From Candidatus Omnitrophota bacterium (GTDB lineage Bacteria; Hinthialibacterota; Hinthialibacteria; Hinthialibacterales; Hinthialibacteraceae): a DNA stretch of 64,000 nucleotides. Shown here piece by piece: positions 8,255-39,644 of this stretch. The position numbers and the translations under genes were made by a program. How positions within the stretch are numbered: the stretch's first letter is position 1; every line of letters begins with the position of its first letter. The stretch is from NCBI GenBank assembly GCA_016934335.1, contig JAFGTC010000267.1, forward strand, positions 10 through 64,009, given 5' to 3'. The notes below the pieces were generated by a model. That model was not told the origin of the DNA. It made no database searches and saw nothing but the letters and a program-made list of their open reading frames with translations.

Positions 8255-8302
8255 GTCCTGACTGACTGGGATGCAGAACGGCGGCCGATCGAAAAAAGAT
8301 CC

Positions 8303-12759: not shown

Positions 12760-13626
12760 ATGAGAATTGCAATTGCTAGCGGAAAAGGCGGTACAGGAAA
12801 AACCACCATTTCCTCCAATTTAGCTTATACAGAAGCAAAAAAGGGGAAAAAGGTCGTCTATGTAGACTGCGATGTTGAAGAGCCCAACGGACATTTATTT
12901 TTGAAGCCGGAAATTGTGTCGACTCGCCCCGTAGGGATCATGGTTCCCTCCGTTGATCAAGATTTATGCAATCATTGCGGATTATGCGGTCAAATCTGCG
13001 AATACAGCGCGATCGTGTGTTTGGGATCGGAGACGCTTGTGTTTCCCGAGATGTGTCATTCGTGTGGAGGATGCTGGCTGGTGTGCCCTGAGAACGCCAT
13101 TTCGCAAGTTATGAAGGAAATGGGACGGGTTGAGATCGGCCGTGCGGGATCGATAGATTTCGTGCAGGGCGTCTTGAATATCGGCGAGGCGATGAGTCCG
13201 CCCGTCATCCGGGCGGTTAAGAAAGCCATGCCGGAGTCTGAGATTCAAATACTCGATGCGCCGCCCGGGACTTCATGCCCGGTGATCGAAACTATTCGAG
13301 ACTGCGATTATTTGATTTTAGTCACCGAGCCCACGCCGTTTGGTTTAAACGATTTAATCTTGGCGGTCGACATGGTGCGCACCTTACATTATTCGTTCGG
13401 CGTCATCATCAATCGGGCGGATTTGGGATATTCGGATGTGCAGGATTATTGCCGAAGGCAGCACATTCCCATCCTGGCGGAATTTCCCGACGATCGGCGA
13501 GCGGCCGAAGCGTATTCGAAAGGATATTTAGTCAGCGAAGTCATCCCCGAATTCGCCGGATTATTAGACGGCTTGGTCGACCGAATCCAATTCGAACTTG
13601 AGAGCGATAAGGTAGGCGCATCATGA
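12760..13626 (+). CDS. MinD/ParA-family P-loop ATPase with 2x[4Fe-4S] ferredoxin insert
   Basis: Deviant Walker A ASGKGGTGKTT. Two Cys clusters CNHCGLCGQICEYSAI and CHSCGGCWLVCPENAI. A second nucleotide-binding region DAPPGTSCP. Confidence 0.75.
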   Translation: MRIAIASGKGGTGKTTISSNLAYTEAKKGKKVVYVDCDVEEPNGHLFLKPEIVSTRPVGIMVPSVDQDLCNHCGLCGQICEYSAIVCLGSETLVFPEMCHSCGGCWLVCPENAISQVMKEMGRVEIGRAGSIDFVQGVLNIGEAMSPPVIRAVKKAMPESEIQILDAPPGTSCPVIETIRDCDYLILVTEPTPFGLNDLILAVDMVRTLHYSFGVIINRADLGYSDVQDYCRRQHIPILAEFPDDRRAAEAYSKGYLVSEVIPEFAGLLDGLVDRIQFELESDKVGAS

Positions 13627-14561
13627 AAGAAATGGTCATCATCAGCGGAAAAGGCGGAACCGGCAAGACCTCGATTGTCGCCTCATTTGCGGCTTTGGCG
13701 AAAAACTCGGTGCTGGCCGACTGCGATGTAGACGCCGCCGATCTGCATCTCATCCTCGAGCCGGACATCTATTGGAAAGAGAAATTTTCCGGCGGCTCCC
13801 GTGCTCGGATCCTGCCGGGGCATTGCACAGCGTGCGGGAAATGCGAGGAAATATGCCGCTTCGACGCCATTTACTTCGACGGGCCGGGTAACGGCGTGCA
13901 GGAAAAAACCTTTCGCATCGATCCCATCACCTGCGAAGGATGCGGCGTGTGCGCCTGGTTTTGCGCCGAGAAAGCCATCGAATTCGCTCCCGCCGTGAAT
14001 GGCGAATGGTATAAATCGGAAACGCGCTTCGGCCCCATGGTTCACGCGCGCTTAGGGGCGGGGGAGGAAAATTCCGGGAAACTGGTCACTCTGGTTCGAA
14101 AAGAAGCTGGAAAGATCGCCGAAGAAAAAAATATAGACCTGTTGATAGTCGACGGTTCGCCGGGCATCGGCTGCCCCGTCATTGCGTCGATCACCGGCGC
14201 CGATATGGTTGTGATTGTGACGGAGCCGACGTTGAGCGGACTGCATGACCTGAAGCGAGTCGCCAAACTCACTCGACAATTCGACATTCCTACGCTGGCG
14301 TGCATCAACAAGTGGGATTTGAATCCCGAACTCGCCTCCGCGATCGAAAGCGAAGCGCGTCAACAAGAATTAGGATATGCCGGGCGCGTTCGGTATGACA
14401 AAGCCGCCACTCTCTCGCAAATCGAGAAAAAATCGATCGTTGAATATCAGTCCGGTGGAGCGGCGGAGGATATACAAGCAGTCTGGTCAAAAGTGAGATT
14501 GGAATTAGAGAAGTTAGGTGCGTCTGTTTCTAATTCCGTTTTCTCAATTGGAAAATCCTAA
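13623..14561 (+). CDS. MinD/ParA-family P-loop ATPase with 2x[4Fe-4S] ferredoxin insert (paralog)
   Basis: ISGKGGTGKTS. Cys clusters CTACGKCEEICRFDAI and CEGCGVCAWFCAEKAI. Motif DGSPGIGCPV. ATGA overlap with the previous gene. Confidence 0.75.
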   Translation: MKEMVIISGKGGTGKTSIVASFAALAKNSVLADCDVDAADLHLILEPDIYWKEKFSGGSRARILPGHCTACGKCEEICRFDAIYFDGPGNGVQEKTFRIDPITCEGCGVCAWFCAEKAIEFAPAVNGEWYKSETRFGPMVHARLGAGEENSGKLVTLVRKEAGKIAEEKNIDLLIVDGSPGIGCPVIASITGADMVVIVTEPTLSGLHDLKRVAKLTRQFDIPTLACINKWDLNPELASAIESEARQQELGYAGRVRYDKAATLSQIEKKSIVEYQSGGAAEDIQAVWSKVRLELEKLGASVSNSVFSIGKS

Positions 14562-14624
14562 TTCAAAAAATGCGTCAATTCATTTTGTCGCTTTATGTCA
14601 AAGAAAGAACAGGAGACAATAAAC

Positions 14625-14960
14625 ATGAAAATTGCCATTCCCGTGGCCGACGGCCGGTTGTGCGCTCATTTCGGGCATTGCGAAGAATTCGCTGTGATGG
14701 ATGTTGACGATTCGAAAACGATTATAGGTCAGACACGGCATACGCCGCCCATGCACGAACCGGGCGTCTTGCCGCGCTGGCTGCATGAAATGGGAGTCAA
14801 TGTCATTATCGCCGGGGGCATGGGGCAGCGAGCGCAGGCCATCTTCGCCCAGAATGACATCGAAGTCGTGGTCGGCGCGCCCACGGGCGATCCGGAAGAA
14901 ATCGTCCAGAATTATCTGCAAGGGATGATCCAATGCGGCGATAATTTATGCGACCATTAA
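14625..14960 (+). CDS. NifX/NifB-C-terminal-like dinitrogenase FeMo-cofactor family protein
   Basis: MKIAIPVADGRLCAHFGHCEEFAVMDVD...NVIIAGGMGQRA. AGGAGA RBS 8 nt upstream of the ATG at 14625; the longer ORF starting at 14595 is unlikely. Confidence 0.65.
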   Translation: MKIAIPVADGRLCAHFGHCEEFAVMDVDDSKTIIGQTRHTPPMHEPGVLPRWLHEMGVNVIIAGGMGQRAQAIFAQNDIEVVVGAPTGDPEEIVQNYLQGMIQCGDNLCDH

Positions 14961-14979
14961 CAGGGATCTTGTTTTAATA

Positions 14980-15007
14980 AGAATGATTCTTGATTAAGAA
15001 TCATTCT
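14980..15007. terminator. Perfect 12-bp stem hairpin (AGAATGATTCTT-gatt-AAGAATCATTCT) between convergent genes
   Basis: Read directly in the sequence. It lies between the end of the + strand operon (14960) and the end of thrB (15024). No strong U-tract on either side, so it may be a bidirectional or processing hairpin. Confidence 0.45.
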
Positions 15008-15023
15008 GAATTTGGCGGAAAAA

Positions 15024-15938
15024 TCAGAATGACTTGGCTGTCAAGCCTTTATTATCCGCTTTCAAATAACGTATTTCTGATTGCATGCCGTATTGAGCGA
15101 TGACCTGACTCATGGCGTCGCCTACGGCTTCCTTCTTTTCGAGAGTGAGCGCCATTATAGTGGATCCGGATCCGCTGAGATAGGCGCCGATCGCTCCTGC
15201 ATCGCGCGCGGCGCGTATGACGTCAAAAAGGGGAGCGAGCGCGGGGATGGCGGCTTGTCGCTGGGGTTGGTGGAAGCGGTCTTCCAGCAAATCGCCGATC
15301 TGTTCATAATCGCTTTGCGCAAAAGCGGCTGTCAGCAAAATCCCGCGAGTATGCGTGAATATTGCATCTTCGCGGGGCATGGCGGGCGTGAAGACGGTAC
15401 GGGCTTTGTCGGTTTCCACTTCTTTGGCTGGCGAAACGGCGACAAAATCAATGACCGGCGGGATAGGGAATTCGTAATGGACGAGCTGATCGCCGACGAT
15501 TCCCGAAGCGCAGAAGCCTCCGTAATAACAGGGGACGACATTGTCGCTGCAGCCCTCCAGCTCCGCCGCCCATTTGACGATGTCGCTATCGGATCGCTTG
15601 ACGTTGAGCATTCGGTTGAGGCCTTCCAAGACCGCCAGCCGGAACGTGGCGCTGCTGGCCAGTCCGCGAGCGATGGGGATTTTGTTGTCGACGCGGAAGG
15701 TGAAATGGCGCGAGGCCAGGCCGCTGCGCTGGAAAAACCATCGCGCCGCCGCTTTGACCATTTCGAGGCACATTGGCTGCAGAGATGCGCCGCCGCCGCC
15801 GATGACCTCTAATTGGGTTTCTGTTTCGGAGGCTTCCATCTCAAAATAATTGCGCAGAGAAACGGCGATTCCCAGCGTATCGAATCCACTGCCGATATTG
15901 CCGCTCGAAGCCGGAACTGTGATTTTTATCCTGTTCAT
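15024..15938 (-). CDS. thrB: Homoserine kinase (GHMP kinase)
   Basis: N-terminus KITVPASSGNIGSGFDTLGIAVSL and the GHMP motif PIARGLASSAT are ThrB-like. Confidence 0.6.
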   Translation of the reverse strand: MNRIKITVPASSGNIGSGFDTLGIAVSLRNYFEMEASETETQLEVIGGGGASLQPMCLEMVKAAARWFFQRSGLASRHFTFRVDNKIPIARGLASSATFRLAVLEGLNRMLNVKRSDSDIVKWAAELEGCSDNVVPCYYGGFCASGIVGDQLVHYEFPIPPVIDFVAVSPAKEVETDKARTVFTPAMPREDAIFTHTRGILLTAAFAQSDYEQIGDLLEDRFHQPQRQAAIPALAPLFDVIRAARDAGAIGAYLSGSGSTIMALTLEKKEAVGDAMSQVIAQYGMQSEIRYLKADNKGLTAKSF

Positions 15939-16009
15939 GATGGTATTCGCCTATGAGAATATTTTCCTTTTCAATATACATGCCCGATTCAAAACACGAA
16001 GACGCCCGA

Positions 16010-17176
16010 TTATACAGCCAGTCCGGCGGAATACCCCGACGACCAGGCCCATTGAAAATTATGCCCGCCTAAATGCCCGGTTACGTCTACAACCTCGCCA
16101 ATGAAATAGAGTCCCGGAACTTTTTGGGCTTCCATGGTTTTGCTGGATAGTTCGCGCGTATCCACGCCGCCCGAACTCACTTCCGCTTTGGCGTATCCCT
16201 CCGTTCCTTGAGGCGTAAGCGGCCAATTTTCCAACAAGGATTGGAGGCGAGCGAGCTCTTTGGGCGAGTATTGTTTCACCGGTTTATTGGCGGCGCATTT
16301 CTCGCACCATAATTGCGCGAATCGTTTGGGCAGAAAGCCGCTGAGTACGCTGCTGAGCAGTTGATTGTCTTTTTGGCGACCATTCAATAATTGTTGTACA
16401 TCGACATTCGGCAATAGATTGAAATGCAATGTTTCTCCCTCTTTCCAATACGAAGAAATTTGCAAGATAGCCGGGCCGCTGAGCCCGCGATGAGTGAACA
16501 ATACATTTTCCTGAAATTCGATCCGGTTCAGGCGCACAATCGCTTCGAACGACGCCCCGCGCAGGCTTCCCCAAAGCGCTTGATCCTTCTCACTGAAAGT
16601 AAGGGGGACGAGAGCGGGGCGCATTTCCATAATGGATAGGCCGAATTGCCTGGCTGCGCGCAAGCCGAAATCGCTGGCGCCGATTTTGGGGATGGAAAGC
16701 CCGCCTGAGGCGATGACCAGCGAATCGCATTCATAAATTTCCTGCTGTGTTTTTATGCGAAACCGCTGATGTTTTTCGATGGATTGAATATGGCAGTTCA
16801 ATTGGATCTGAACGCGGCTTTGCCTGCATTCGTCCAGAAGCATGTGGATGATTTGCCGTGAACTATCGATGCAGAAAAGTTGGCCGTCCTTCTTTTCGTA
16901 ATATCCGATTTTATGGCGTTCGACCAGGCGGATAAAATCTTGCGGCGTATAGCGATTCAAAGGGGCGTAAACGAATCGTGGATTGGAGGAAAGAAACAAC
17001 TCGGGACAGCAATGTATATTTGTGAAGTTGCAATGCCCGCCGCCGCTGACGGCGATTTTTTGGCCGGCGCGGTCGTTGTGCTCCAGGAGAAGCGCACTGC
17101 GCCCCCGCCGTCCGGCGTGCAGAGCGCAAAATAAACCCGCTGCGCCCCCGCCGACAATGATGACGTCGTATTTCAT
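16010..17176 (-). CDS. NAD(P)/FAD-dependent oxidoreductase, HI0933/BaiN-like flavoprotein
   Basis: MKYDVIIVGGGAAGLFCA dinucleotide-binding motif. The ORF extends upstream to 17305 and would overlap the next gene by 80 nt; the internal ATG at 17176, immediately before the Rossmann motif, is preferred. Confidence 0.65.
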   Translation of the reverse strand: MKYDVIIVGGGAAGLFCALHAGRRGRSALLLEHNDRAGQKIAVSGGGHCNFTNIHCCPELFLSSNPRFVYAPLNRYTPQDFIRLVERHKIGYYEKKDGQLFCIDSSRQIIHMLLDECRQSRVQIQLNCHIQSIEKHQRFRIKTQQEIYECDSLVIASGGLSIPKIGASDFGLRAARQFGLSIMEMRPALVPLTFSEKDQALWGSLRGASFEAIVRLNRIEFQENVLFTHRGLSGPAILQISSYWKEGETLHFNLLPNVDVQQLLNGRQKDNQLLSSVLSGFLPKRFAQLWCEKCAANKPVKQYSPKELARLQSLLENWPLTPQGTEGYAKAEVSSGGVDTRELSSKTMEAQKVPGLYFIGEVVDVTGHLGGHNFQWAWSSGYSAGLAV

Positions 17177-17225
17177 CGAATTTTGAATATTTTTACGCAT
17201 GGAAATGAATGCCGCATGGAGAGAT

Positions 17226-18350
17226 TCACCGATCCTGTTCGGTCTTAGCTGCATTGAGATATTGCTTCCAGACATCGAAAGCCGGGCGCGACTGACCGTT
17301 TTCATCCAACATGCCGCAGTCTTTCCAGACTTTGAAGGCTTCCGGTGAACTGTCTTTGATCTTATCCCACAAGGCGTCGTAGTCTCGAAAGAGAAAGGCG
17401 ATCACAAAAAGATAGTCGTCCTGGTTCGCTCGCTGCAGCAGCGTTTCGATGTAAGTTTTTTGCATTTGCGGATTGCCGGATAGGGTCAGATTGTAAGTGT
17501 CCAATTGGATATCCTCCGCGGGGAAGCCGGTTTCCGTAATTGCAATTGGTTTATCCGTAAATTGGCGCAGCCAGTCGAATGTTTCGAGGGGCCGCTCCGA
17601 TTGGCCGGCCATGAAGGGGTAATAACTGATCCCGGCAATATCGACATAAGGCAGCAGTTCTCGAATTTCCTTCTCTTGTTGTTCGCGATCTTTCCATCCC
17701 GGATTGGTTAAATTGTGCAGGGAAAAAGTGGCGAAAACAGGTAAATTCGGATAGCGCTTTTTGAGGCTTGCATAGGTTTCTTTGTAAAGTTCAAGAAAAG
17801 CGGGCCATTTGTCGGGGGCGTTGTGAAAGAGTTCGTTGATTTCGATGCCGATAGCCAGATAATCGGGCTGAAAATGCTCGACGGCTCTCAAGCAGTAATT
17901 CAAATAAGCTTGTTTGACGATCGGATCGTTGAACGCTTTCTGCTCAAATTCTCGGGGCAGGGGCATGTCGTCGCTTTCTCCGCGATAGAGATCCATTCCA
18001 TTGCGGGCCTCGTTAAGAGGCGTCAGCGATAGAAACAACTTTTTCCCGGCGGCCATATTTTTCCGGCCCTCCCAATCTCCCATCATTTTGGGATGAAACG
18101 GCTTCTCTTGGAGGGCTTCCGTCCAGGGAACGCCTTGCTCGATATGGTGAGAGACAATATCTCCATAGCGCGTGATTTGCCGGTTGGTTGTGATGATGGC
18201 GGTAACCGAGAAATCCCACGGAAAGGGAGTGAATCCCATAGAATAGCCGCGGTTCATTACTGTTTTGCCGGATTGATCGGAATGATTGGAGCAGGATGAT
18301 AAGAATCCTATCAAACAAATCAGAAGCAAGGCAGGTTTCCAAACAGACAT
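17226..18350 (-). CDS. Lipoprotein glycoside hydrolase, clan GH-A (GH5/GH113-like TIM barrel)
   Basis: Signal peptide with a lipobox (LIGFLSSC). A GIEINE segment is candidate acid/base and IAITETGFP candidate nucleophile, as in clan GH-A. Confidence 0.45.
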   Translation of the reverse strand: MSVWKPALLLICLIGFLSSCSNHSDQSGKTVMNRGYSMGFTPFPWDFSVTAIITTNRQITRYGDIVSHHIEQGVPWTEALQEKPFHPKMMGDWEGRKNMAAGKKLFLSLTPLNEARNGMDLYRGESDDMPLPREFEQKAFNDPIVKQAYLNYCLRAVEHFQPDYLAIGIEINELFHNAPDKWPAFLELYKETYASLKKRYPNLPVFATFSLHNLTNPGWKDREQQEKEIRELLPYVDIAGISYYPFMAGQSERPLETFDWLRQFTDKPIAITETGFPAEDIQLDTYNLTLSGNPQMQKTYIETLLQRANQDDYLFVIAFLFRDYDALWDKIKDSSPEAFKVWKDCGMLDENGQSRPAFDVWKQYLNAAKTEQDR

Positions 18351-18395
18351 GCCGGCCTCCCCATTTTAGTTTGCTGCTGCGGATCGGCGCAAAAA

Positions 18396-20111
18396 CTAGC
18401 GTTCGATGTATTGCTTCATGCGCTTGAGGCCCTCACGGATGTTGTCCGTGGAGGTAGCGAACGAGAGCCGGATGTATTCCTGGTCTTCGCCTTCGTTTTT
18501 CCGGCCGAAGCAGGTGCGCGGCAGAACCGCGACGCCGGCCTGCTCGAGCAGACCTCGCTGCAGTTCATTGGCGGTTTGCATTCCCAGGCGGCGGCAGGCG
18601 CCGGTCACATTGGGGAAGACGTAAAACGCCCCCTGCGCGGGGAGGCAGCGAACGCCTTCGATGGCGTTCAAGCCGTCCACGATGATTTTGCTGCGCTCTT
18701 TGAACTGCTCGATCATATAGAGGGATTCGTCTTGAGAGCCCAGCAGCGCCTGCGTCCCGGCGATTTGCGAGAATGTGCATGAGCAGCTGTCGATATTGGT
18801 TTCGATTTTCGCCACCTGTTCGGCGAGGAGTTTGTTCATAACGCCGTAACCGAGCCGCCAGCCGGTCATGGCGTACGTTTTGGAGAAGCCATCGACAATG
18901 ATCGTGCGTTCTTTCATGCCGGCGACGCTGGCGATGGAATTGAATTCGCCGTCAAATATGATCTGCGAGTAAACTTCGTCGGCGATGACCCAGAGATTGT
19001 GATCGACGGCCAGGCGGGCGATTTCGCGCAGTTCGCTTTCGCCCAATAAGGTCCCCGTCGGGTTGCCCGGCGAGTTGATGACGATCATACGGATTTTCGG
19101 CGTGATGCTGTGCACCAATTGATCGACCGAAAAATTCCAGTTTTGTGATTCGAGCAGCGGAAGAGGCTTGGCATGAGCGCCGATCCAATCGGCGACCGAT
19201 TCATAGATCGGGTAGCCCGGATTGGGATAGAGCACCTCGTCGCCGGGATTGAGCAGAGCCATCATGACGTCGAAGACGATCGGTTTGGCGCCGGGGGTGA
19301 CGACCACTTCCTCCGGATCGACGGGGATGCGGCGGGTGCGCTGCATATATTGGGCGATGGCTTGCCGCAGTTCCGGCAGACCGTTGCTGGGGCCGTAATG
19401 CGTATATCCCTGATCCAGGGCTCGCTTAGCTGTCTCGCGAATATGCGAGGGCGTATCGAAATCCGGTTCGCCCAGGCCGAACGAGATGATGTCGCGTCCT
19501 TGTTCTTTGAGTTGGTTTACTTCCGCCAATACGGAAAACGCCGTCTCGGTTCCCAAACGAGACATGCGATTCGACAGTGACGGGAGATCGGAGGATGCGC
19601 CGGCGTCGATGAGCAGAGTTCCCGTCAAGGGAGCGACGATCCAGAGCGGTTTATCGGGATGTTTCGAATGCGCGCGCAGGAGAGCGTCGAGGCTTTCTAC
19701 TGTCAGTTCATCCGCATTCTGAATATTCCAGCGCGGCGCGTCGACCGGCGGCTCCGGAGAGAAGACCGTCACGCGAATATGGGGATTTTTGTTGACGAAA
19801 TTGGCGTCATTCGAATCGATCAAACAAAAAATGCGCTGCGCAGCGGCGCCGTTTTTCAAACAGGATTCCAAAGAACTTAGGCCCGCGGTTGGGATGCAGC
19901 GGGCGGGGCAGCCGATCGACTGATAGGCGTCTTTTACGATGCCGGCGTATCGTTCGGAAAAAAGCAGCCGATCGCCTCCCGGCCACTGAGGATTGACCGG
20001 ATCGAGACGCATTTCGGAAAACAAGAGAAATCCCACAGCGTTGACGAGCGACGAGCATCGGTTGGGGGATCGAATCTCGTTCAGTTTATTGAGTAAATCG
20101 GATTGGTTCAT
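18396..20111 (-). CDS. Class I/II PLP-dependent aminotransferase with ~180-aa N-terminal extension (transketolase-N-like fragment)
   Basis: The aminotransferase core runs from about aa 183 (GLGEPDFDTP...; SKTYAMTGWRLGYG lysine motif). The N-terminal RLDPVNPQWPGGDRLLFSERYAG resembles the transketolase N-terminal R-DPKNPKWPDRDRFVLSKGHAS but lacks the His. An alternative start sits at 19565. Confidence 0.6.
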   Translation of the reverse strand: MNQSDLLNKLNEIRSPNRCSSLVNAVGFLLFSEMRLDPVNPQWPGGDRLLFSERYAGIVKDAYQSIGCPARCIPTAGLSSLESCLKNGAAAQRIFCLIDSNDANFVNKNPHIRVTVFSPEPPVDAPRWNIQNADELTVESLDALLRAHSKHPDKPLWIVAPLTGTLLIDAGASSDLPSLSNRMSRLGTETAFSVLAEVNQLKEQGRDIISFGLGEPDFDTPSHIRETAKRALDQGYTHYGPSNGLPELRQAIAQYMQRTRRIPVDPEEVVVTPGAKPIVFDVMMALLNPGDEVLYPNPGYPIYESVADWIGAHAKPLPLLESQNWNFSVDQLVHSITPKIRMIVINSPGNPTGTLLGESELREIARLAVDHNLWVIADEVYSQIIFDGEFNSIASVAGMKERTIIVDGFSKTYAMTGWRLGYGVMNKLLAEQVAKIETNIDSCSCTFSQIAGTQALLGSQDESLYMIEQFKERSKIIVDGLNAIEGVRCLPAQGAFYVFPNVTGACRRLGMQTANELQRGLLEQAGVAVLPRTCFGRKNEGEDQEYIRLSFATSTDNIREGLKRMKQYIER

Positions 20112-20126
20112 GCTTATTCCGTCTCG

Positions 20127-22199
20127 TTAGTTCCTCGGCAAAAGTTCCATGTTTTTCCCGCGCACGGAGGGCATGCGCTTCACGGCTTCATTGGCCGACA
20201 AGCCTCCATTGATGACGCTGCAGACCGCTTCCGCCGTCGCGGCCGGATCGTCGGGGCCGGGATAAAGAACATTGCGGCCCACCAGCGCTCCGCGGACGTT
20301 TTCGCCTTCGCCCATGCCGCGCTCAAATTGTTCGATGACCGATATGGGATTTCCTTTCGACTCGCCGCCCAGCATCAAAATGGGGCCGGAGAACGATTGC
20401 ACGACCCGGTTGTAATTGTTGACGTAAGGAATTTTGAGCCAGACATTGGCGGAAGAGTGCGACAGTCCGGAAGCGACGCCGATCACGCGAATCAAGGCGT
20501 CGGCATCTACGATGGTCTGATATTTTCCATCGATGCTTTTTACAGGCAGCGGCTCTAAAAACACAGGAAGTTGAACTTCGTGGCAGGCTTCGATGCTGCG
20601 AGCGCATTCTTCCATGGTTTGAATGGCGTAGCGGTCGTAAGGATCGGGAATGGCCAGACGCAGCAGCAGTTTCGCGCCGTCCAGGTTCAGTTTTTTGATC
20701 TTTTTCACGTCGCGATAGGCCGTCATGCGATCGAGCAGTTCGTATTTCGCGCCGGCTAAACCGCTGCGATTCATGCAGGCGATCAGAACGCGATTGTCGA
20801 GAAAACTATGGCCGTTTTTTTCTTCATACACGGCGTCCAGAAGAACCAAATCTTCAATCACGTCGGCTGTGGCCATGATGCCGTCCACGGCCGAGGCCGT
20901 CATCACGCGGGCGCAGCGGCCCAGGTAATCGAAGCGGTTGCCCATGGCGACGGGATCGTCGCCGACGTTGGTTACCATGCGGGCGGGATGGTCGGCGGCC
21001 AGGATCACCAGTCTACCGTCAGGCGCCAAAACTTCGCGCTGCTTGCGCTTCATCATGCGCTCTTCGATGAGCCGGGGTTGTTTGACGCGCATATCGGACA
21101 ATCGGTCCCACAGATCGTCGGTCAAAAAGCGGCGGGTTTGGAAAATGAAATTTCGCGGCAGCGCGTAATTGACGTCGATCCGGTTGCGGCAGGTGAAATA
21201 AAACGATTTAGCCGATGCGGCGATGTCTTCGGGAATTTCGCTGCCGATCGGTTTGATTTCAAAGGATACTGTGCCTTCGTATTGCGATTCGGCCAGCGCG
21301 TGAAGATAGCCCGCCAGGGCGTCCATGGTCAATTCGCCGTCGCTGACGTTGAAGGCGGGATGAGCGTCGCCGTAGCGCCGGTCGCCGTCAGGCGCGTTGC
21401 GGTTCAAAACTGTATTGGCGATATGAACGTGACCCAGATAGGGAATGAATTTTTTGAGTACGTTCGGACCTTCGCCGGAGATCAGCATGTGGCTCGTATC
21501 GATCATCAGGCCGAATTCATTGTGGCCGTAATAATGACGAACCGATTCAACCAGCCGTTCGGCCCGATCCGCCGAACCCACCAGAGCTTCTTTGAAAAAA
21601 CTGGTTCCGGGAATGTTAGTGCGTCCGTCGAAGATTTCAATCACGGGCTGCATAGGAGTATGGGCGCCCGCTTTTTCCTTCAAGTAGAGGCATATTTCAT
21701 GGACGGAGCGCCGCAATTGCGCCAGCCCTTCTTCGCTGACTCGCTCGGCGGCGTCGCCCTCCAGGTTTTGGAGAATGGCCGGATCCTTGCCGCTGTAGAA
21801 GGCGAATTTGTCGCAGCCGTATTCGGCGGCTTCGTCGATGCATTCCTTGAGACGATCCATCGCTTTGATGCGCTCGTTTTCGTCTAAAGAAGAAATATCC
21901 GACGGTTCGACAATGTTGTCTTCGTTAATGATTTGCACCAATTGGGCGGTGTAGACGACTTCCTGCAGTTTGTTCTCTTTCCGGGCCTGATCGAGAAGCG
22001 TCTTCACTTCGTTTCGGATGGAAGGCGTCTTGATGCGCGTGATTTCCACCGATTGAAAATCCGGATCGTCGATGATCCATTTCAGGCTCTTGAGGACGTA
22101 TTCTTTCCGGCCTTCTCCGCGCATCACGGAACCGGTATTTCCGGGTCCGGGAAACAACACTGGATGAACAATTCCCAATACATTTCTTTCCAAAGCCAC
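20127..22199 (-). CDS. Two-domain fusion: xylose-isomerase-like TIM-barrel (sugar phosphate isomerase/epimerase) + class I aldolase (DeoC/LacD/DhnA-like)
   Basis: N-half GLMIDTSHM...LGHVHIAN is a xylose-isomerase-like TIM motif. C-half LVILAADHPARM...KLLLRLAIPDP...VWLKIPYV...PILMLGGESKG resembles class I Lys-aldolases. Confidence 0.5.
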   Translation of the reverse strand: MALERNVLGIVHPVLFPGPGNTGSVMRGEGRKEYVLKSLKWIIDDPDFQSVEITRIKTPSIRNEVKTLLDQARKENKLQEVVYTAQLVQIINEDNIVEPSDISSLDENERIKAMDRLKECIDEAAEYGCDKFAFYSGKDPAILQNLEGDAAERVSEEGLAQLRRSVHEICLYLKEKAGAHTPMQPVIEIFDGRTNIPGTSFFKEALVGSADRAERLVESVRHYYGHNEFGLMIDTSHMLISGEGPNVLKKFIPYLGHVHIANTVLNRNAPDGDRRYGDAHPAFNVSDGELTMDALAGYLHALAESQYEGTVSFEIKPIGSEIPEDIAASAKSFYFTCRNRIDVNYALPRNFIFQTRRFLTDDLWDRLSDMRVKQPRLIEERMMKRKQREVLAPDGRLVILAADHPARMVTNVGDDPVAMGNRFDYLGRCARVMTASAVDGIMATADVIEDLVLLDAVYEEKNGHSFLDNRVLIACMNRSGLAGAKYELLDRMTAYRDVKKIKKLNLDGAKLLLRLAIPDPYDRYAIQTMEECARSIEACHEVQLPVFLEPLPVKSIDGKYQTIVDADALIRVIGVASGLSHSSANVWLKIPYVNNYNRVVQSFSGPILMLGGESKGNPISVIEQFERGMGEGENVRGALVGRNVLYPGPDDPAATAEAVCSVINGGLSANEAVKRMPSVRGKNMELLPRN

Positions 22200-22387
22200 G
22201 GCTAATTCTCCAAACGATAACGTTAATCTTTCCAGGAATTACATGATTATAAGAGGTTCCCCCTTAAAAAGGAAACCCTGAGAGAGAATTTTCCGAGTCC
22301 TTGAAATATAATTTTATCCATGAAACCATGAGAATCCTTCGTATAAGGAAGGATCTATTTTTTTCGAGCGGAGGCGAAAAAGAAGCG

Positions 22388-23953
22388 ATGCATACGCGAC
22401 GAGACGTTTTAAAAACACTGGGAGCGGGATCTTTAGCGCTCGCCGCTCCCTTTGCATTGGCCGCGAGAGAAAATCCATCGAAAAAGCCGCCCAATATTGT
22501 ATTGATCCTGGCGGACGATATGGGCTGGTCCGATCTCGGCTGCTATGGAGGGGAAATCGCCACGCCCCATCTCGATCGTTTGGCGGAGGGCGGCGTTCGC
22601 TTCACGCAATTTCACAATACGGCCAAATGCTTTCCTTCGAGAGCCTGTTTGTTGACGGGGCTTTATGCGCAGCAGTGCGGCATGGATCGGAAGCCGGCTG
22701 TGCTGCAAAATTGCGTTACGCTCGCCGAAGCGTTGCGCTCCGCCGGCTATCGAACGCTGATGGCGGGGAAGCATCATGGGACGGAGAATATGCATGATCG
22801 CGGATTTGACCGCTATTTCGGGCTGCGCGATGGATGCTGCAATTATTTCAATCCCGGACTGCAGCGCGAGGGGGAGGGGAAGCCCGCGCAGAAGCGCAGC
22901 GATCGCTATTGGTGCATCGATGACAAGACGTATTCTCCGTATACGCCCAAAGAAAAAGACTTTTATACCACGGATTATTTCACGAAATATGCGCTGCGCT
23001 ATTTGGATGAATATCAAGGGGAAGACAAACCGTTCTTTCTTTATTTGGCATATACGGCGCCTCACGATCCTCTGATGGCATGGCCGGAAGACATTCAAAA
23101 GTACAGCGAAACGTACAAAGTCGGATATGAAGCGATTCGACAGGCCCGATACGCTCGTCAAAAACAGATGAGATTGATCGACGACCGCTTCCCCTGCTCG
23201 GAAGCGACGCATCCCGACTGGGATTCGTTGACGGAGCAAGAGAGGAAGGAAGAAGCGAGGAAAATGGCGGTTTACGCCGCCATGATCGACCGCATGGATC
23301 AGAACATCGGGAACGTGTTGAAAAAAATCCGCGACATGGGCGAGGAGGAGAATACGCTGGTTTTATTTGCATCCGATAACGGATGCTCCGCGGAAGTAGT
23401 TCGAAGCGGATATAACGTCCCCGGCGAGGGGGAAATCGGTTCTATGACGCGCTGGTCGTCTTTGGGGGGCGACTGGGCGAACGTCAGCAATACGCCGTAT
23501 CGTTTGTATAAGAATTACAGCCATGAGGGCGGTATTTGCACGCCGCTCATTGCGTATTGGCCCGGCGGGATCCAAAACGCCGGCCGAGTCAGCCGCAGGC
23601 TCGGGCATTTCATCGATGTCATGCCGACTTTGTTGGACGCTGCGGCGGCGGATTATCCAACCGAACTTCGAGGCGAAGCCGTAGTCCCATTTGAAGGGGA
23701 GAGTTTCCTTCCCGAACTTCGGGGAAAAGACGAAAAGCGCCAATCTCCCATTTTTTGGAAGTGGTCGAAAGGGCGAGCCGTTCGAAATAATGAGTGGAAA
23801 CTGGTTTCATGGAACAACGGCTGGGAACTGTACGACATGCAGCGCGATAAGACGGAGACGCGCAATGTCGCGGACAAGAATCCAGAAGTTGTTAAGAAAA
23901 TGGAAGTAATGTATCGGGATTGGCTGAAGAAATGCGGCGTGCAGGAAGATTGA
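22388..23953 (+). CDS. Arylsulfatase-family sulfatase with Tat signal peptide
   Basis: MHTRRDVLKTLGAGSLALAAPFALAA is a twin-arginine signal. Sulfatase signature C-x-P-x-R in CFPSRACLLTG. The longer ORF starting at 22301 is unlikely; GGAGG RBS sits before 22388. Confidence 0.8.
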   Translation: MHTRRDVLKTLGAGSLALAAPFALAARENPSKKPPNIVLILADDMGWSDLGCYGGEIATPHLDRLAEGGVRFTQFHNTAKCFPSRACLLTGLYAQQCGMDRKPAVLQNCVTLAEALRSAGYRTLMAGKHHGTENMHDRGFDRYFGLRDGCCNYFNPGLQREGEGKPAQKRSDRYWCIDDKTYSPYTPKEKDFYTTDYFTKYALRYLDEYQGEDKPFFLYLAYTAPHDPLMAWPEDIQKYSETYKVGYEAIRQARYARQKQMRLIDDRFPCSEATHPDWDSLTEQERKEEARKMAVYAAMIDRMDQNIGNVLKKIRDMGEEENTLVLFASDNGCSAEVVRSGYNVPGEGEIGSMTRWSSLGGDWANVSNTPYRLYKNYSHEGGICTPLIAYWPGGIQNAGRVSRRLGHFIDVMPTLLDAAAADYPTELRGEAVVPFEGESFLPELRGKDEKRQSPIFWKWSKGRAVRNNEWKLVSWNNGWELYDMQRDKTETRNVADKNPEVVKKMEVMYRDWLKKCGVQED

Positions 23954-28878: not shown

Positions 28879-29868
28879 CTACCAGGCATAGCCATTGGGA
28901 TGTTTTTGATGCCAGAGCCAGGCGGTTTCGACGATCTTATCGATGTCGGTAAAACGGGGCGTCCAACCTAACAATTCCTTCGCTTTCTTTGACGAAGCCA
29001 CCAGCCTGGGCGGATCGCCGGCGCGCCGCTCCGCCTCCACCGCGGGAATGGGATGTTTTGTGATTTTTCTCGCCGCTTCGATCACTTCGCGCACGGAATA
29101 GCCGTGCTCGCTGCCCAGGTTGCAGAAGAGGCTCTCATTTTTGCAATATTCCAAAGCTCGGATATGGGCGTCCGCCAGATCGCTGACGTGGATGTAATCG
29201 CGGATGCAGGAGCCGTCCGGCGTGTCGTAATCCGCGCCAAAAATGGAAATATGCTCCCGCTGTCCGAGAGCGACCTGTAGAACCAGCGGGATGAGATGGG
29301 TTTCGGGATTATGATCCTCGCCGTGCTCTGCGGTTGCGCCTGAAGCGTTGAAATAGCGAAGGATGGCGTGACGGATTCCGTATGAGATTTCATAGCTGCG
29401 CAGGAGCAGTTCGAATGCGAGTTTGGAGCATCCATAGGGATTAATAGGCTGCTGGGGGTGAGATTCGTCAATGGGAACTTCCTGAACGTCGCCGTAAGTG
29501 GCGCAGGTCGATGAAAAGACGATGCGCTTCACGTCATGATCGCGCATCGCGTTGAGAAGGTTGTAGCCGCCGATGAAATTATTGTGGAAATATCTCTCCG
29601 CCTGCGTCATGGATTCGCCGACATAGGCGTAAGCGCCGAAGTGCATTACCGCGTCGATAGTATGAGCATCGAACATCCCCCGCACGGCGTCTCCGTCGCG
29701 GATGTCGCATTCTTCGATGACGGCGTCAGGGTGGACCGCTTCTCGATGGCCGTATTCAAAATTGTCGGCGACAATCACCCGCTTTCCGGCGGCGACTAAA
29801 GCTTCGACATTGACGCTGCCGATGTAGCCGGCGCCTCCAATAACCAGTACTGTTTCATGATCGCTCAC
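28879..29868 (-). CDS. galE: UDP-glucose 4-epimerase (NAD-dependent epimerase/dehydratase)
   Basis: VLVIGGAGYIGS Rossmann motif and a YGCSK catalytic Tyr-x3-Lys motif; 329 aa. Confidence 0.8.
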   Translation of the reverse strand: MSDHETVLVIGGAGYIGSVNVEALVAAGKRVIVADNFEYGHREAVHPDAVIEECDIRDGDAVRGMFDAHTIDAVMHFGAYAYVGESMTQAERYFHNNFIGGYNLLNAMRDHDVKRIVFSSTCATYGDVQEVPIDESHPQQPINPYGCSKLAFELLLRSYEISYGIRHAILRYFNASGATAEHGEDHNPETHLIPLVLQVALGQREHISIFGADYDTPDGSCIRDYIHVSDLADAHIRALEYCKNESLFCNLGSEHGYSVREVIEAARKITKHPIPAVEAERRAGDPPRLVASSKKAKELLGWTPRFTDIDKIVETAWLWHQKHPNGYAW

Positions 29869-29892
29869 AATGATACTCCTAATCTTAATGGC

Positions 29893-31311
29893 CTATGTAA
29901 GTACGCTTTGCGTTTTTGTCCAACAAGCTCCATCGCTGCTTCCATGAAAAATCGTCAGTTCGCAGCCGGCGCCGGCGGCGTGCTCCTGTGCGATGTTTTG
30001 GACGCTCTGCAGTCCTTTTTCTCCGATGCACAAAAAGCAGACCGTGCCGCCTGAACCGCCGCCGGTGATTTTCGCGCCGTACACGCCGTGCGATGATCCC
30101 GCTTCATAGGCGCGTTTGACCAGGGCGTCGGTCGCTTCGCTTCCCAATCCGCAGCGGCTGTAGCTCCAGTGCGATTGATACATCAACTCGCCCAGTTGGA
30201 AATAAGCGTCTTCACGATTCGATTGGGCGGCATGGGGAGAATTGGCCAATTGGAGAAGAAGCGCGAATTCGATGACGCGATGGTTTTCATAAATGGGATG
30301 AGCCGTGCAGGCTTTCACTGCATAGCGCCGATCGGGCTGCGGCGAAGTGATGGGATCGATCGTATCCCCGAAGCGCGAGATGAATTCCTCGCCGCTCATG
30401 ACGCCGGGCAATATAGATTCGTAGCGGGATTCGTATTGCGACGGCGTGAGTTTGGATAGATAGCCTTCGAGGGGCAGGCCGTCTCGCCGGCATGTGCGTT
30501 TGGCTTCCAGAATAACTTGGGGATCGACGCCGCAGTTGTCGGCGATGATGCTGTACCCCATAAAAGCCGCCGTTCGCACGTCTCCATACGAGGCCCCGCC
30601 GACGGAATGCCGCTCGCCGCTGTCAACTCCAACAAAATGCATTTCTTTTGGAATGCCGACGGGGGGAGAAAGGATGTCCGGCCGGCACAAGATGGGCAGA
30701 AGTTGATCCTTGCGGCCGAAATAGGCGGCCAATTGATCCATCAAGCCGCACGGCGCTCCGACAATGTAATTCTCGACTTTCTGCCCCAGCGCCGGGAGTT
30801 CGTTTCCGGACAGTTCGACTTGAAGCGCATGCGACAACGCCGCCAATGTTGCGATTTCCAGCGCGGCGGAGGACGAAACCCCTTTGCCGATCGGAACATC
30901 CGAATCGACCCAGAAATCCGCGCCGTTAAATTCGACGCCTTTTTCTTGGATTAAGCCGAGAACGCAGCCCAGCACATAGGCGGCCCAGGATCGCTTTTTA
31001 TCCTCCGACAAGATTTTTTGGGAAAATCGGTAATCGCCGGTTTTCTCAGAAGGAATCAATTGATCCAAACGATATTGCGCCTCGCTCTCCAATCCGGCGC
31101 GCTCAGCTTCATGACTATAAACGCGCAATATCCCGTCGCGGCGCAACGATGCATAAACGTTCGTGCGGCCGGCGATGGGCATCTGCAGGACGAATGATCC
31201 GGAATAATCGGCGATGCCTCCCATTACATCCAGGCGCCCGGGCGCGGAGGCATGAACGACTTCCCGGTTTGTTCCAAAAAAATCGCATATGCGTGAATCG
31301 AGGTTCATCAA
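29893..31311 (-). CDS. GHMP-family anomeric sugar-1-kinase (galactokinase / L-arabinokinase-like)
   Basis: N-terminal APGRLDVMGGIADYSGSFVLQMPI resembles the arabinokinase/galactokinase motif. GHMP ATP motif PIGKGVSSSAALEIA. At 472 aa it is longer than canonical GalK. Confidence 0.65.
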   Translation of the reverse strand: MMNLDSRICDFFGTNREVVHASAPGRLDVMGGIADYSGSFVLQMPIAGRTNVYASLRRDGILRVYSHEAERAGLESEAQYRLDQLIPSEKTGDYRFSQKILSEDKKRSWAAYVLGCVLGLIQEKGVEFNGADFWVDSDVPIGKGVSSSAALEIATLAALSHALQVELSGNELPALGQKVENYIVGAPCGLMDQLAAYFGRKDQLLPILCRPDILSPPVGIPKEMHFVGVDSGERHSVGGASYGDVRTAAFMGYSIIADNCGVDPQVILEAKRTCRRDGLPLEGYLSKLTPSQYESRYESILPGVMSGEEFISRFGDTIDPITSPQPDRRYAVKACTAHPIYENHRVIEFALLLQLANSPHAAQSNREDAYFQLGELMYQSHWSYSRCGLGSEATDALVKRAYEAGSSHGVYGAKITGGGSGGTVCFLCIGEKGLQSVQNIAQEHAAGAGCELTIFHGSSDGACWTKTQSVLT

Positions 31312-32363
31312 TCGGCTCCCTGATAGGATGTTAAATCGACTTGCTTAAGTTCCCGGGCTTTATCTTCGGGCATTGCATCCGCCATGAAATTGCCCCCGCC
31401 TATCTCTGGGCCGGCTAAAAACTTCTGCAAACCGGGGGAGCGCAAGGGAGGCTGCAGCAGCAGATGGAGATGATACTGGGAGTAATCCCCGCCGTCCACC
31501 GGCGCTTGGAAAAATGACATGACATAAGGAAACGGCATGCCGAAGAGAGAATCGTATCTGCGTATCACGGATTGGAAGACGGCTGCTAAATCGTAGAGTT
31601 CGGAATCGGACATCGAGGCAAGCGTCGCATGGCGCTTCTTGGGGAAGATCATCACCTCATAGGAATAGCGCGCAAAGAATGGAACGAAGGCGCAGGCGGA
31701 CTCGTTCTCGTCGATAACGCGCTCGCCGGATTTCAATTCGCAGCCGAGAATCTCATCGAATATGTTTTGGTTATGCTCTCGATGAAAATCCAATGCGGCA
31801 TCCAGTTCTTTTTCAATTAAGGAGAAGACGAAATTTACGGCGTAAATTTGACAATGGGGATGTGGATTGGAAACGCCAGTGATTTCGCCGCGATTCTCAA
31901 AAATGAGGACAAAACGAATCGAGGGATTTTTGATAAACTCGATCATTTGATCGCGCCAGGCCGTGAAAACATGGGCGACTTGATTGCATGAAATCTGCGC
32001 AAGCGTCACATTATGGCGGGGATCGTAGCAGACGACTCGCGCAATGCCGTCCGCGCGCTTTTTTTGGTAGAGCGCCGGGTGCGCATCCTGGATATTTGGA
32101 GGCACAGCGGGCGCTTCTGCGCCGACAACCGGGAAATCGTTATCGAAAATAAAAACGCCCCTGTAGTCTGGATTTCGGATGCCCCGGGCGCGCACGTTTC
32201 CCGGACATAGATAACAGGCGGGATCATAGGCGGGGCTCTCCTTCGACGGCGCGACGGACGCCCCGCTCCAAGGCCTCGCATCTCGATGCGCCGAGTAAAC
32301 CACCCACTCACGCCGAAGCGGATGCCAACGCTCCTCCCATTTTCCTTGAAATTTCTGGTTCAT
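31308..32363 (-). CDS. galT: Galactose-1-phosphate uridylyltransferase (HIT superfamily)
   Basis: HPHCQIYA (H-x-H-x-Q) active-site motif and a Cys-rich region CYLCPGN; ATGA overlap with the kinase gene. Confidence 0.7.
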   Translation of the reverse strand: MNQKFQGKWEERWHPLRREWVVYSAHRDARPWSGASVAPSKESPAYDPACYLCPGNVRARGIRNPDYRGVFIFDNDFPVVGAEAPAVPPNIQDAHPALYQKKRADGIARVVCYDPRHNVTLAQISCNQVAHVFTAWRDQMIEFIKNPSIRFVLIFENRGEITGVSNPHPHCQIYAVNFVFSLIEKELDAALDFHREHNQNIFDEILGCELKSGERVIDENESACAFVPFFARYSYEVMIFPKKRHATLASMSDSELYDLAAVFQSVIRRYDSLFGMPFPYVMSFFQAPVDGGDYSQYHLHLLLQPPLRSPGLQKFLAGPEIGGGNFMADAMPEDKARELKQVDLTSYQGAD

Positions 32364-32665
32364 AGTTCTTTAATAGCAGTCTGCGGATTACTTTCAGCCT
32401 GCCCTGCCAGTTCGTTTAGATCTTGCTCTCCCAACTCATTCAGCCAGTCTGCTATAAATATCATTGCTTTTGGAGGGGGAAAAGGGAAGATTTGTCGATT
32501 CAAGAATTTCTTTTTGGACATGGAGGAAGGGGATTAGGCGCCGGGGATGCAACATTTTGCTTTTTATGGTAATTTTGATCCAATGGATTCAACCCAGTAC
32601 AAGCGAGGGCTTTAATTACCTATAATGATCCGCTTTCAATCCTATATTGATGAGGCATCGGTGAC

Positions 32666-35098: not shown

Positions 35099-35202
35099 AC
35101 GCCAGGTTGATTTCCAGAAGGATTTATCTACTCTTAAGGTGGAAAATACGAAAGATAGCAACAGTCTCGATCAAGGCGTAGAAAACAGGAAAGGCTAGTG
35201 CA

Positions 35203-37629: not shown

Positions 37630-37745
37630 TTTTTTTTATGCGGATGGGATTGAGGAAGTTGGGCGATATAGGCTTGAGAAACATTAGCATTGTTGATTAT
37701 GCTATGAATATTCTGTTTCATTCTTAAATTCGAAAGGTTGGGATT

Positions 37746-39509: not shown

Positions 39510-39535
39510 GAGCGGCGAAGTTTGCGAGATGAAGC

Positions 39536-39575: not shown

Positions 39576-39644
39576 TCTCATCCTGCAAGATCGAATTCGT
39601 TGAAGATGGATGACAGAGAGATCTTTCTAAAGGAGTATTGGGAC

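Follow-up and report, generated by a model that had tools for sequence, protein, structure and literature searches.

A single gene encodes two joined barrels

The window analysed here, a 64-kb stretch of contig JAFGTC010000267.1 from a Candidatus Omnitrophota bacterium, encodes on its minus strand a 690-residue protein in which a xylose-isomerase-like (β/α)8 barrel is joined to a second barrel that resembles the class I (Schiff-base) aldolases. According to the list of open reading frames (ORFs) and the translation, the gene is a single uninterrupted frame running from 22199 to 20127 (Table 1). A previous, sequence-only reading of the locus had proposed one 690-residue polypeptide with two domains, and this is borne out by the ORF and by the two Pfam domains described below; the motifs that it quoted (GLMIDTSHM, GHVHIAN, KLLLRL, WLKIPYV and MLGGESKG) were all found in the translation. 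The start codon read from the sequence is the GTG at 22199-22197. Residues 1-25, which lie 5' of the first ATG codon, are kept across phyla (M1, N6, V11, G18 and P19), and because this segment is conserved in distant homologues the GTG start is considered correct; the 665-residue database call for the protein (P0001) is too short.

An aminotransferase gene begins 15 nt downstream of the fusion gene, at 20111 on the same strand, in keeping with the earlier description of the two as one cluster, and the pairing is conserved in bacteria and archaea. The divergently oriented sulfatase gene was also correctly recognised, with a twin-arginine-like signal (TRRDVLK) following its ATG at 22388. Scans of positions 14900-22500 for promoters and terminators returned sites no more frequently than in shuffled sequence, and so the operon limits are not informed by them.

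The C-terminal half is a predicted class I aldolase

The C-terminal half matches the Pfam family Cgl0159-like (PF22649) over residues 395-657, with an E-value of 1.3e-69 and 234.7 bits against a cut-off of 27, and the match covers profile positions 1-248 of 251. The sole close relative of solved structure is Cgl0159 of Corynebacterium glutamicum (PDB 3FOK; E 1.3e-54 over residues 359-664), and a profile built from 25 C-terminal domains matches the same protein with E 5e-74. Beyond this, the profile matches the ADH synthase MJ0400 (E 1e-9), the thiolase/aldolase LsrF (E 2e-5), archaeal class IA fructose-bisphosphate (FBP) aldolase (E 2.5e-3) and the LacD tagatose-bisphosphate aldolases (E about 0.02).

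The predicted Schiff-base lysine, K589, falls in a column of the LsrF alignments where entries 3GKF and 3GLC have lysine and entry 4P2V has alanine; the last is presumably the K203A variant of LsrF, in which the Schiff-base lysine was removed. Across the 78 aligned fusion proteins that are the basis for all residue counts given here, D403, H404, R407, K510, K589, G611, G612, G641 and R642 are identical throughout. Moreover, the LGGES and VGRN segments of the fusion align with the phosphate-binding loops GGpk and vGRN of MJ0400 and LsrF. The invariance of K589, together with the alignment of these glycine motifs with MJ0400 and LsrF, makes the class I aldolase assignment sound at superfamily level. 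The sequence-only reading had placed this half among the DhnA/DeoC-type Schiff-base aldolases, and the PF22649 match and the alignment of the catalytic lysine with LsrF Lys203 agree with that placing. At the level of individual NCBIfam equivalogs the scores fall far below the cut-offs, namely 27.9 versus 241 bits for PRK07226 (ADH synthase), 19.4 versus 299 for TIGR01949, 27.4 versus 430 for class I FBP aldolase and 19.9 versus 297 for LsrF.

LsrF, MJ0400 and class IA FBP aldolase all act on a phosphorylated ketone resembling dihydroxyacetone phosphate (DHAP). They share with the C-terminal half the TIM barrel, the Schiff-base lysine on the same strand and the C-terminal phosphate-binding glycine motifs; however, their similarity to the fusion is remote (profile E 1e-9 to 2.5e-3). 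As judged from its sequence, the C-terminal half is probably a class I aldolase whose action on a phosphorylated keto sugar or sugar acid releases DHAP.

Cgl0159 itself can be aligned with the C-terminal half over ~300 residues as the same barrel. Both proteins have the invariant lysine (in WMKLP in Cgl0159 and WLKIP in the fusion), and the motifs AADHPAR, MNR-GL and LLGGE are common to the two. Cgl0159 is a single-domain protein of 307 residues, whereas the window protein has a further barrel, of 345 residues, at its N terminus; and the stand-alone gene lies between IolC and IolA in actinobacterial inositol operons, whereas the fusion gene lies beside an aminotransferase gene, without iol genes. 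No published activity of Cgl0159 was found in the literature, and its gene, cg0198, is listed in one paper as encoding a conserved hypothetical protein.

The two stand-alone Cgl0159 proteins that were looked up, from Corynebacterium callunae and Microbacterium thalassium (n = 2), are encoded within the same operon, in the order PfkB kinase, Cgl0159, aldehyde dehydrogenase, KduI/IolB, thiamine pyrophosphate (TPP) enzyme, AP_endonuc_2 protein, Gfo/Idh/MocA protein and AP_endonuc_2 protein. We take this to be an inositol operon, IolC-x-IolA-IolB-IolD-IolE-IolG-IolH, with Cgl0159 (x) at the place of IolJ. In Bacillus subtilis, IolJ cleaves 6-phospho-5-dehydro-2-deoxy-gluconate (DKGP) to DHAP and malonate semialdehyde, and the stand-alone Cgl0159 family would, from its operon position, be placed to cleave DKGP. 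The IolJ reaction is also of the type proposed below for the fusion, in which a 6-phospho-5-keto-hexonate gives DHAP and an aldehyde-acid; however, IolJ belongs to the class II aldolases, whose metal-dependent mechanism has no relation to that of a Schiff-base enzyme, and it has no fused second domain.

The N-terminal half is a divergent xylose-isomerase-like barrel

The N-terminal half had been described as a xylose-isomerase-like TIM barrel, and indeed it matches AP_endonuc_2 (PF01261) above the gathering cut-off (residues 69-327, E 7.8e-21, 75 bits against 31). An AlphaFold2 model of residues 1-350 has a predicted local distance difference test score (pLDDT) of 95.9, and the best Foldseek matches of the barrel are D-psicose, D-tagatose and L-ribulose 3-epimerases, UlaE and TM0416, at 13-20% identity. 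A profile alignment with D-tagatose 3-epimerase (8XIX) pairs E188, D234 (with H237) and H259 with catalytic and metal residues of that enzyme. The epimerase alignment ends before E314, and the proposed correspondence of this residue comes from its position at strand β8.

The canonical glutamates are not universal. E188 is lost in the Mesoaciditogaceae, in the Gemmatales and even in some close relatives of the window protein, and E314 is absent from the Gemmatales clade. Nine other barrel residues (E52, Q89, N92, E93, D101, R110, R116, D191 and E243) are identical in 76-78 of the 78 proteins, and D278 is a further invariant or near-invariant position. In the AlphaFold2 model, taken with the alignment, the conserved polar residues of the barrel are located after β-strands, on the catalytic face.

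The only NCBIfam model to match the N-terminal domain was that of the keto-uronate epimerase IolO, with 22.1 bits against a cut-off of 300. This score, together with the absence of the first catalytic glutamate from 23 of the 78 members, sets the barrel outside the ketose 3-epimerases, and a family-level sequence match of the barrel to hydroxypyruvate isomerase (Hyi) or OtnI was not found. Xylose isomerase, the ketose 3-epimerases, TM0416/IolO, UlaE, IolI, IolE and YgbM/OtnI are 11-22% identical to the barrel, which is roughly equidistant from all of them; it differs from these families in that one canonical glutamate is dispensable and in possessing an invariant residue set of its own. The likeness to Hyi and OtnI is one of superfamily and of chemistry, since these enzymes carry out an aldehyde/ketone isomerisation on a small hydroxy-acid, the type of reaction proposed for the barrel below. 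Overall, sequence comparison indicates that the barrel is a deep-branching member of the superfamily and almost certainly a catalytic one, and homology is compatible with an isomerase, an epimerase or a dehydratase. We see in its D-x-x-H and D-x-H motifs a likeness to the two-metal site of xylose isomerase.

A model of the full-length fusion (pLDDT 90.2, predicted TM-score 0.87) packs the two domains against each other with confidence. Its flexible loops, residues 406-411 and 483-485, are both in the aldolase half.

Table 1. Positions in the window of the fusion gene, its predicted functional codons and the neighbouring genes of the same strand
Feature	Coordinates	Strand	Description	Basis or conservation
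Fusion gene	20127..22199	minus	690 aa, GTG start, stop codon included	ORF list, translation, Pfam, full-length homologues
Ribosome-binding site GGAG	22208..22211	minus	8 nt 5' of the GTG start	sequence reading
N-terminal domain, aa 1-345	21165..22199	minus	xylose-isomerase-like (β/α)8 barrel	
E188 codon	21636..21638	minus	counterpart of the first catalytic/metal glutamate of ketose 3-epimerases	kept in 55/78
D234 codon (D-x-x-H motif)	21498..21500	minus	counterpart of the aspartate metal ligand	kept in 74/78
H259 codon (HVHIAN)	21423..21425	minus	counterpart of the histidine metal ligand	kept in 74/78
E314 codon (SFEIKP)	21258..21260	minus	proposed fourth metal ligand and second catalytic glutamate	kept in 66/78
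C-terminal domain, aa 359-690	20130..21125	minus	Cgl0159-like class I (Schiff-base) aldolase barrel with N-terminal helical lead-in	
K589 codon (WLKIPY)	20433..20435	minus	predicted Schiff-base lysine	invariant, 78/78
Class I aspartate-type aminotransferase gene	18396..20111	minus	571 aa	PF00155, E 4e-75
N-terminal extension of the aminotransferase	19572..20111	minus	~180 residues, degenerate piece of the transketolase N-terminal domain	window's clade only
Homoserine kinase gene thrB	15024..15938	minus		TIGR00191, 193.9 bits versus cut-off 168

The fusion is widespread in bacteria and archaea

A scan of 185,579 genomes, one per species, returned 542 stretches that encode a relative of the fusion, and a search of a protein collection returned 147 clusters. 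All 120 of the clusters listed carry both Pfam domains, at lengths of 660-770 residues and identities of 39-100%. Because the same full-length two-domain protein recurs across the 542 species-genome stretches, the possibility that the fusion is a frameshift or assembly artefact, which the sequence-only reading had named as a caveat, is excluded. That reading had also called the fusion unusual: it is so in being uncharacterised, as no described example was found in the literature, but not in being rare, given 542 loci in at least seven phyla. Likewise, neither a characterisation of the Cgl0159 family nor a uronate pathway of the kind proposed below was found in the literature. Both domain families are already known, and the fusion is present in databases under generic names such as 'TIM barrel protein', 'Cgl0159 family (beta/alpha)8-fold protein' and 'DhnA family aldolase/sugar phosphate isomerase'.

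The best 80 of the 542 stretches, taken as 20-kb loci, are the basis for the context counts below. They include uncultured bacteria akin to that of the window (63-83% identity; one carries the label Candidatus Omnitrophota) and also Bacillota, Limnochordia, Clostridia, Latescibacterota, Planctomycetota (Gemmatales and Phycisphaerae) and the Thermotogota family Mesoaciditogaceae, among them the cultured Athalassotoga saccharophila NAS-01. The archaea represented are Promethearchaeota (Asgard archaea) and Bathyarchaeota.

The N-terminal barrel also exists by itself. An exhaustive HMMER search with this domain alone gave 365 cluster representatives at E<=1e-3 and 14 at E<=1e-30; about nine of the representatives listed are of fusion length (457-714 residues) and the remainder are stand-alone proteins of ~305 residues. 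The latter family, itself uncharacterised and 33-40% identical to the fusion barrel, has >3000 members, mostly in Armatimonadota and neighbouring phyla. In two of the five contexts looked up, the stand-alone barrel gene is directly followed by a D-2-hydroxyacid dehydrogenase gene, and in one of these two, from Candidatus Hakubella, it is preceded by a gene for the tagaturonate/fructuronate epimerase UxaE, with a KduI/IolB gene nearby; the other three contexts were uninformative. Such contexts are seen in loci L086 (1113-3049), L087 (1208-3144) and L090 (5565-9163).

Aminotransferase, dehydrogenase and transketolase genes recur beside the fusion

An aspartate-type class I aminotransferase is encoded adjacent to the fusion, or within ~4 kb of it, in 32-34 of the 80 loci, both bacterial and archaeal. 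In the window's clade it lies immediately downstream, and in nine genomes the order is fusion, aminotransferase and then thrB. It lies immediately upstream in Bacillota/Limnochordia, where it is 56-61% identical to the window's protein, and upstream also in Asgard archaea and Bathyarchaeota (44-47% identical). The best PDB relatives of the enzyme are an aspartate aminotransferase (AspAT; 1J32) and an aromatic aminotransferase (1DJU), and prephenate aminotransferases are among its relatives. The N-terminal extension of the window's aminotransferase carries the motif MR-DP-NP-W--GD; all 12 aligned members of the clade have the extension, and the orthologues of Bacillota and archaea lack it. A profile of these 12 extensions matches the split-transketolase N component 6YAK (E 3.5e-7), seven of the next 12 matches are transketolases, and pairwise BLAST matches the extension to a Planctomycetota TktN as well. 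This transketolase relic suggests that the ancestral operon held a transketolase too.

Genes of sugar-acid metabolism are found in other lineages. A Bh0493-type uronate isomerase is encoded in 9-11 of the 80 loci, including two of Gemmatales, and a DeoR (sugar-phosphate-type) regulator in 18 loci of four phyla, spread over Mesoaciditogaceae, Planctomycetota, Clostridia and Limnochordia, with a single case in the window's clade. Nine loci of the Mesoaciditogaceae share an arrangement in which a uronate isomerase gene of the Bh0493 type (E 3e-162 to PDB 2PNK/2Q08) is followed by genes for DeoR, the fusion and a PCC-domain protein. These are joined, depending on the genome, by a tripartite ATP-independent periplasmic (TRAP) or ATP-binding cassette (ABC) transporter, glycoside hydrolases (GH) of families GH2 and GH4, a kinase of the ADP-dependent phosphofructokinase (PFK)/glucokinase family, a Gfo/Idh/MocA dehydrogenase and a transketolase-like protein of 740-756 residues. 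One Mesoaciditogaceae locus has KduI/IolB, an isocitrate/isopropylmalate-type dehydrogenase, a split transketolase, PGK and a GAPDH-like gene upstream. In the Athalassotoga loci (L053, 7949-20155, and L059, 7952-22106) the fusion lies in an apparent glucuronide/hexuronate locus with a transketolase-like protein of 742 residues, and UxuA/UxaA/KdgK/Eda-type genes are absent from the annotated genes of these two loci. The A. saccharophila orthologue of the fusion is at 10001-12106 of L059 and its Bh0493-type isomerase at 7952-9229; the ADP-PFK-like kinase is encoded in sister loci (L053, 16597-17895; L047, 15538-16863), and L059 ends short of the corresponding place.

In three or four loci of Clostridia the order is DeoR, D-2-hydroxyacid dehydrogenase, fusion and xylulokinase-type FGGY kinase, and the dehydrogenase reaches 441.7 bits against the glyoxylate reductase model, whose cut-off is 455. 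The Planctomycetota order is DeoR, fusion and split transketolase, sometimes followed by ABC permeases; on one such contig (L082, 13033-15762) a PIN-domain gene and a 49-residue ORF are located between the genes for the transketolase N and C subunits. In Limnochordia/Bacillota the aminotransferase gene is followed by the fusion gene, sometimes by genes for DeoR and a cyclophilin-like protein, and then by those for a ComB-like phosphatase-family protein and GroES/EL, the ComB-like phosphatase recurring in 10 Bacillota loci. One Limnochordia locus (L083, 12885-14066) has, after the pair, DeoR, the cyclophilin-like protein (PF04126) and the ComB-like protein, which belongs to the 2-phosphosulfolactate-phosphatase family.

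Two other contexts were considered and set aside. The sizes of several genes downstream of the fusion in the Asgard loci fitted an aromatic-biosynthesis operon (aroD/aroC/aroB/aroE/aroK), but the genes proved to encode ThuA-like, radical SAM, FKBP, PHP and ATP-grasp proteins. Asgard loci also encode, a few genes from the fusion, an ATP-grasp protein that matches the inositol 1,3,4-trisphosphate 5/6-kinase family (L041, 12239-13138; L044, 17743-18642; L052, 20601-21530), which could be a coincidence or a faint link to inositol. The hint at a sulfated sugar drawn from the divergent sulfatase was rejected, a sulfatase being encoded near the fusion in only three of the 80 loci, and the window's sulfatase is considered a local accident.

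A proposed role in acidic-sugar catabolism

Nothing in these contexts points to an amino sugar, as the sequence-only reading had also hinted; rather, the recurring partners speak for acidic sugars and for a product that is a C3 2-oxo acid. The reading that we favour is that the fusion is a bifunctional cytoplasmic enzyme of acidic-sugar catabolism, and a probability of roughly 0.35 is assigned to the scheme as a whole.

The well-supported step of this scheme is that of the C-terminal barrel, in which a phosphorylated keto sugar would be held through its keto group as a Schiff base on K589 and then split at a C-C bond to yield DHAP. The substrate would be a 6-phospho-5-keto-hexonate; phosphorylated fructuronate and tagaturonate are examples of such keto-uronate phosphates. 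This class is suggested because Cgl0159 occupies the slot of a DKGP aldolase and because uronate isomerase, kinases and DeoR are encoded near the fusion, and we rate a 5-keto-hexonate phosphate a little below an even chance. DKGP is 5-deoxy-fructuronate phosphate; phosphorylated fructuronate or tagaturonate would be its 2-hydroxylated analogue, and the second product of cleavage would be the C3 aldehyde-acid tartronate semialdehyde.

The step of the N-terminal barrel is the least certain. In the preferred version the barrel would convert tartronate semialdehyde to hydroxypyruvate by an enediol-type reaction, and the two halves would then form a carboxylate analogue of the glycolytic pair of aldolase and triose-phosphate isomerase. 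Tartronate semialdehyde is the aldose-type isomer of hydroxypyruvate, and Hyi, of the same barrel superfamily, interconverts the two. In the other version the barrel would epimerise or isomerise the C6 keto-acid before cleavage. Action after cleavage and action before it are given roughly equal weight, either being a tentative proposal with odds well short of even.

A C3 2-oxo acid is the suggested product because an aminotransferase, a hydroxyacid dehydrogenase and a transketolase recur beside the fusion; the transketolase relic on the window's aminotransferase and the D-2-hydroxyacid dehydrogenases next to stand-alone barrels are in line with it. Hydroxypyruvate is a donor substrate of transketolase, and it gives serine with an aminotransferase and glycerate with glyoxylate/hydroxypyruvate reductase. 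The 2-oxo acid would thus be passed to the aminotransferase, yielding serine, in the window, Bacillota and Asgard archaea; to the dehydrogenase resembling glyoxylate/hydroxypyruvate reductase, yielding glycerate, in some Clostridia; and to transketolase in Planctomycetota and Mesoaciditogaceae. Such a scheme accounts for most of the recurring neighbours at once, and the handing over of an unstable aldehyde would provide the rationale for the fusion. The most extended version is a glycolysis-like route for hexuronates, common to Asgard archaea, Thermotogota, Planctomycetota, Limnochordia and the window's lineage, in which uronate isomerase, a PFK-like or FGGY kinase, the aldolase half and the barrel as 'triose isomerase' would lead to hydroxypyruvate and from there to serine, glycerate or transketolase; taken jointly, these claims are quite doubtful.

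Several observations weigh against the catabolic scheme. Most of the aminotransferase-linked loci, including that of the window, have no kinase, uronate isomerase or transporter gene nearby, and uronate isomerase, kinase, transketolase, DeoR and GhrB-like dehydrogenase genes were not found elsewhere in the 64-kb window. The contexts in Bacillota and Asgard archaea are of a housekeeping kind (TsaBDE, GroES/EL, proteasome) and would fit biosynthesis too, the only specific NCBIfam match of the barrel is the weak one to IolO, and the scheme gives no account of the PCC-domain, cyclophilin-like and ComB-like phosphatase neighbours. The aminotransferase is of the generic AspAT type, with broad specificity, and its linkage to the fusion may have another reason. 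The role of the stand-alone Cgl0159 family as DKGP aldolase comes from operon position only, and, to our knowledge, hydroxypyruvate has not been established as a physiological donor for transketolase.

Alternative roles for the fusion

The strongest alternative, which follows the sequence-only reading, places the coupling on the substrate side, such that the barrel would be a ketose-phosphate 3-epimerase or isomerase preparing a neutral, sulfated or amino ketose phosphate for the aldolase. Consecutive steps are usual for fused domains. This arrangement is also consistent with the D-psicose, D-tagatose and L-ribulose 3-epimerases and UlaE as top Foldseek matches, with the alignment of E188, D234 and H259 with catalytic and metal residues of an epimerase, with the location of E314 at the place of the fourth, and with a keto-uronate epimerase, IolO, as the only NCBIfam match of the domain. 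However, only 55 of the 78 proteins have E188, which the Mesoaciditogaceae and even near relatives of the window protein lack; E314 does not occur in the Gemmatales, and the sulfatase neighbour is not conserved. Moreover, the recurrence of three different consumers of a 2-oxo acid would be left unexplained, and on balance we consider this role unlikely.

The fusion could instead belong to a biosynthetic variant of the archaeal 6-deoxy-5-ketofructose-1-phosphate (DKFP) route to 3-dehydroquinate. The aldolase half would then act on aspartate semialdehyde in the manner of ADH synthase, the aminotransferase would replace the oxidative deamination and the barrel would cyclise the product. ADH synthase is the best relative of the aldolase half after Cgl0159 (MJ0400, E 1e-9; NCBIfam PRK07226), the aminotransferase falls in the AspAT subgroup that contains prephenate aminotransferases, transketolase and thrB are neighbours, and housekeeping contexts in Bacillota and Asgard archaea would suit a biosynthetic enzyme. 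Nevertheless, the scores are far under the ADH synthase cut-offs (27.9 versus 241 and 19.4 versus 299), no recurring gene cluster of the 80 loci turned out to belong to the shikimate pathway, and the aro-sized Asgard neighbours are unrelated. What recurs is DeoR, uronate isomerase, sugar kinases, glycosidases and transporters for sugars or acids, and the route is improbable.

Equally low odds are given to a variant of the inositol pathway, in which the aldolase half would act on DKGP, as proposed for Cgl0159, fused to a barrel of the IolE/IolH/IolI kind. The iol operons in which the stand-alone Cgl0159 family occurs do contain two AP_endonuc_2 genes, one Thermotogota locus of the fusion has KduI/IolB and Gfo/Idh/MocA genes, and DeoR-family regulators control the iol genes in Bacillus. 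However, genes for IolD (the TPP enzyme), IolA (the aldehyde dehydrogenase), the PfkB kinase or IolG do not recur near the fusion in the 80 loci, and a class I aminotransferase would have no role with malonate semialdehyde. Finally, that the barrel is a non-enzymatic module (regulatory, substrate-binding or for oligomerisation) attached to a stand-alone-type aldolase could be argued from the incomplete conservation of E188 (55/78) and E314 (66/78), both lost in Gemmatales, but is very improbable given nine catalytic-face polar residues identical in 76-78 of 78 proteins from bacteria and archaea, and a related stand-alone family of >3000 proteins.

Significance of the fusion

Conservation of the protein extends from Asgard archaea to Thermotogota and Planctomycetota, and its aminotransferase partner is fixed, yet its annotation at present is only 'TIM barrel protein'. 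If the acidic-sugar scheme were correct, it would assign a function to the Cgl0159 family, describe a new phosphorylative aldolase route for uronic acids and connect sugar acids directly with serine or glycerate. Uronic acids are major components of pectin, hemicellulose and glycosaminoglycans, and the metabolic reconstruction of uncultured polysaccharide degraders and Asgard archaea would be improved. The hypothesis is directly testable in a cultured host of the fusion, Athalassotoga saccharophila NAS-01.

Other genes in the window

Positions 28879-42803 contain galE, a galK-like gene and galT on the minus strand, followed by genes for a GH127 β-L-arabinofuranosidase, a GH51-like arabinofuranosidase, a sodium/solute symporter and a 1067-residue GH106-like rhamnosidase, a polysaccharide-utilisation stretch that suggests degradation of pectin or arabinogalactan side-chains. 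With the GH127, GH51-like and GH106-like enzymes, two sodium/solute symporters, Leloir genes and a Tat-type sulfatase encoded in the window, the organism looks like a degrader of plant or algal polysaccharides; this is compatible with uronate-rich substrates and proves nothing.

Between the aminotransferase gene and thrB, at 16010-18350 on the minus strand, are ORFs for a 374-residue protein with a weak GH53 match and for an HI0933-like flavoprotein of the aminoacetone-oxidase family. They overlap by 80 nt, which suggests that one start is probably wrong, and neither gene is kept at this place in relatives. On the plus strand, positions 12760-14960 carry a run of small P-loop genes (CbiA/ParA/NUBPL-like) with 4Fe-4S dicluster domains. 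A nitrogenase was not found in the examined parts of the window, and the run is followed by a gene for a 121-residue protein resembling dinitrogenase FeMo-cofactor-binding proteins of the NifX/NifB-C type.

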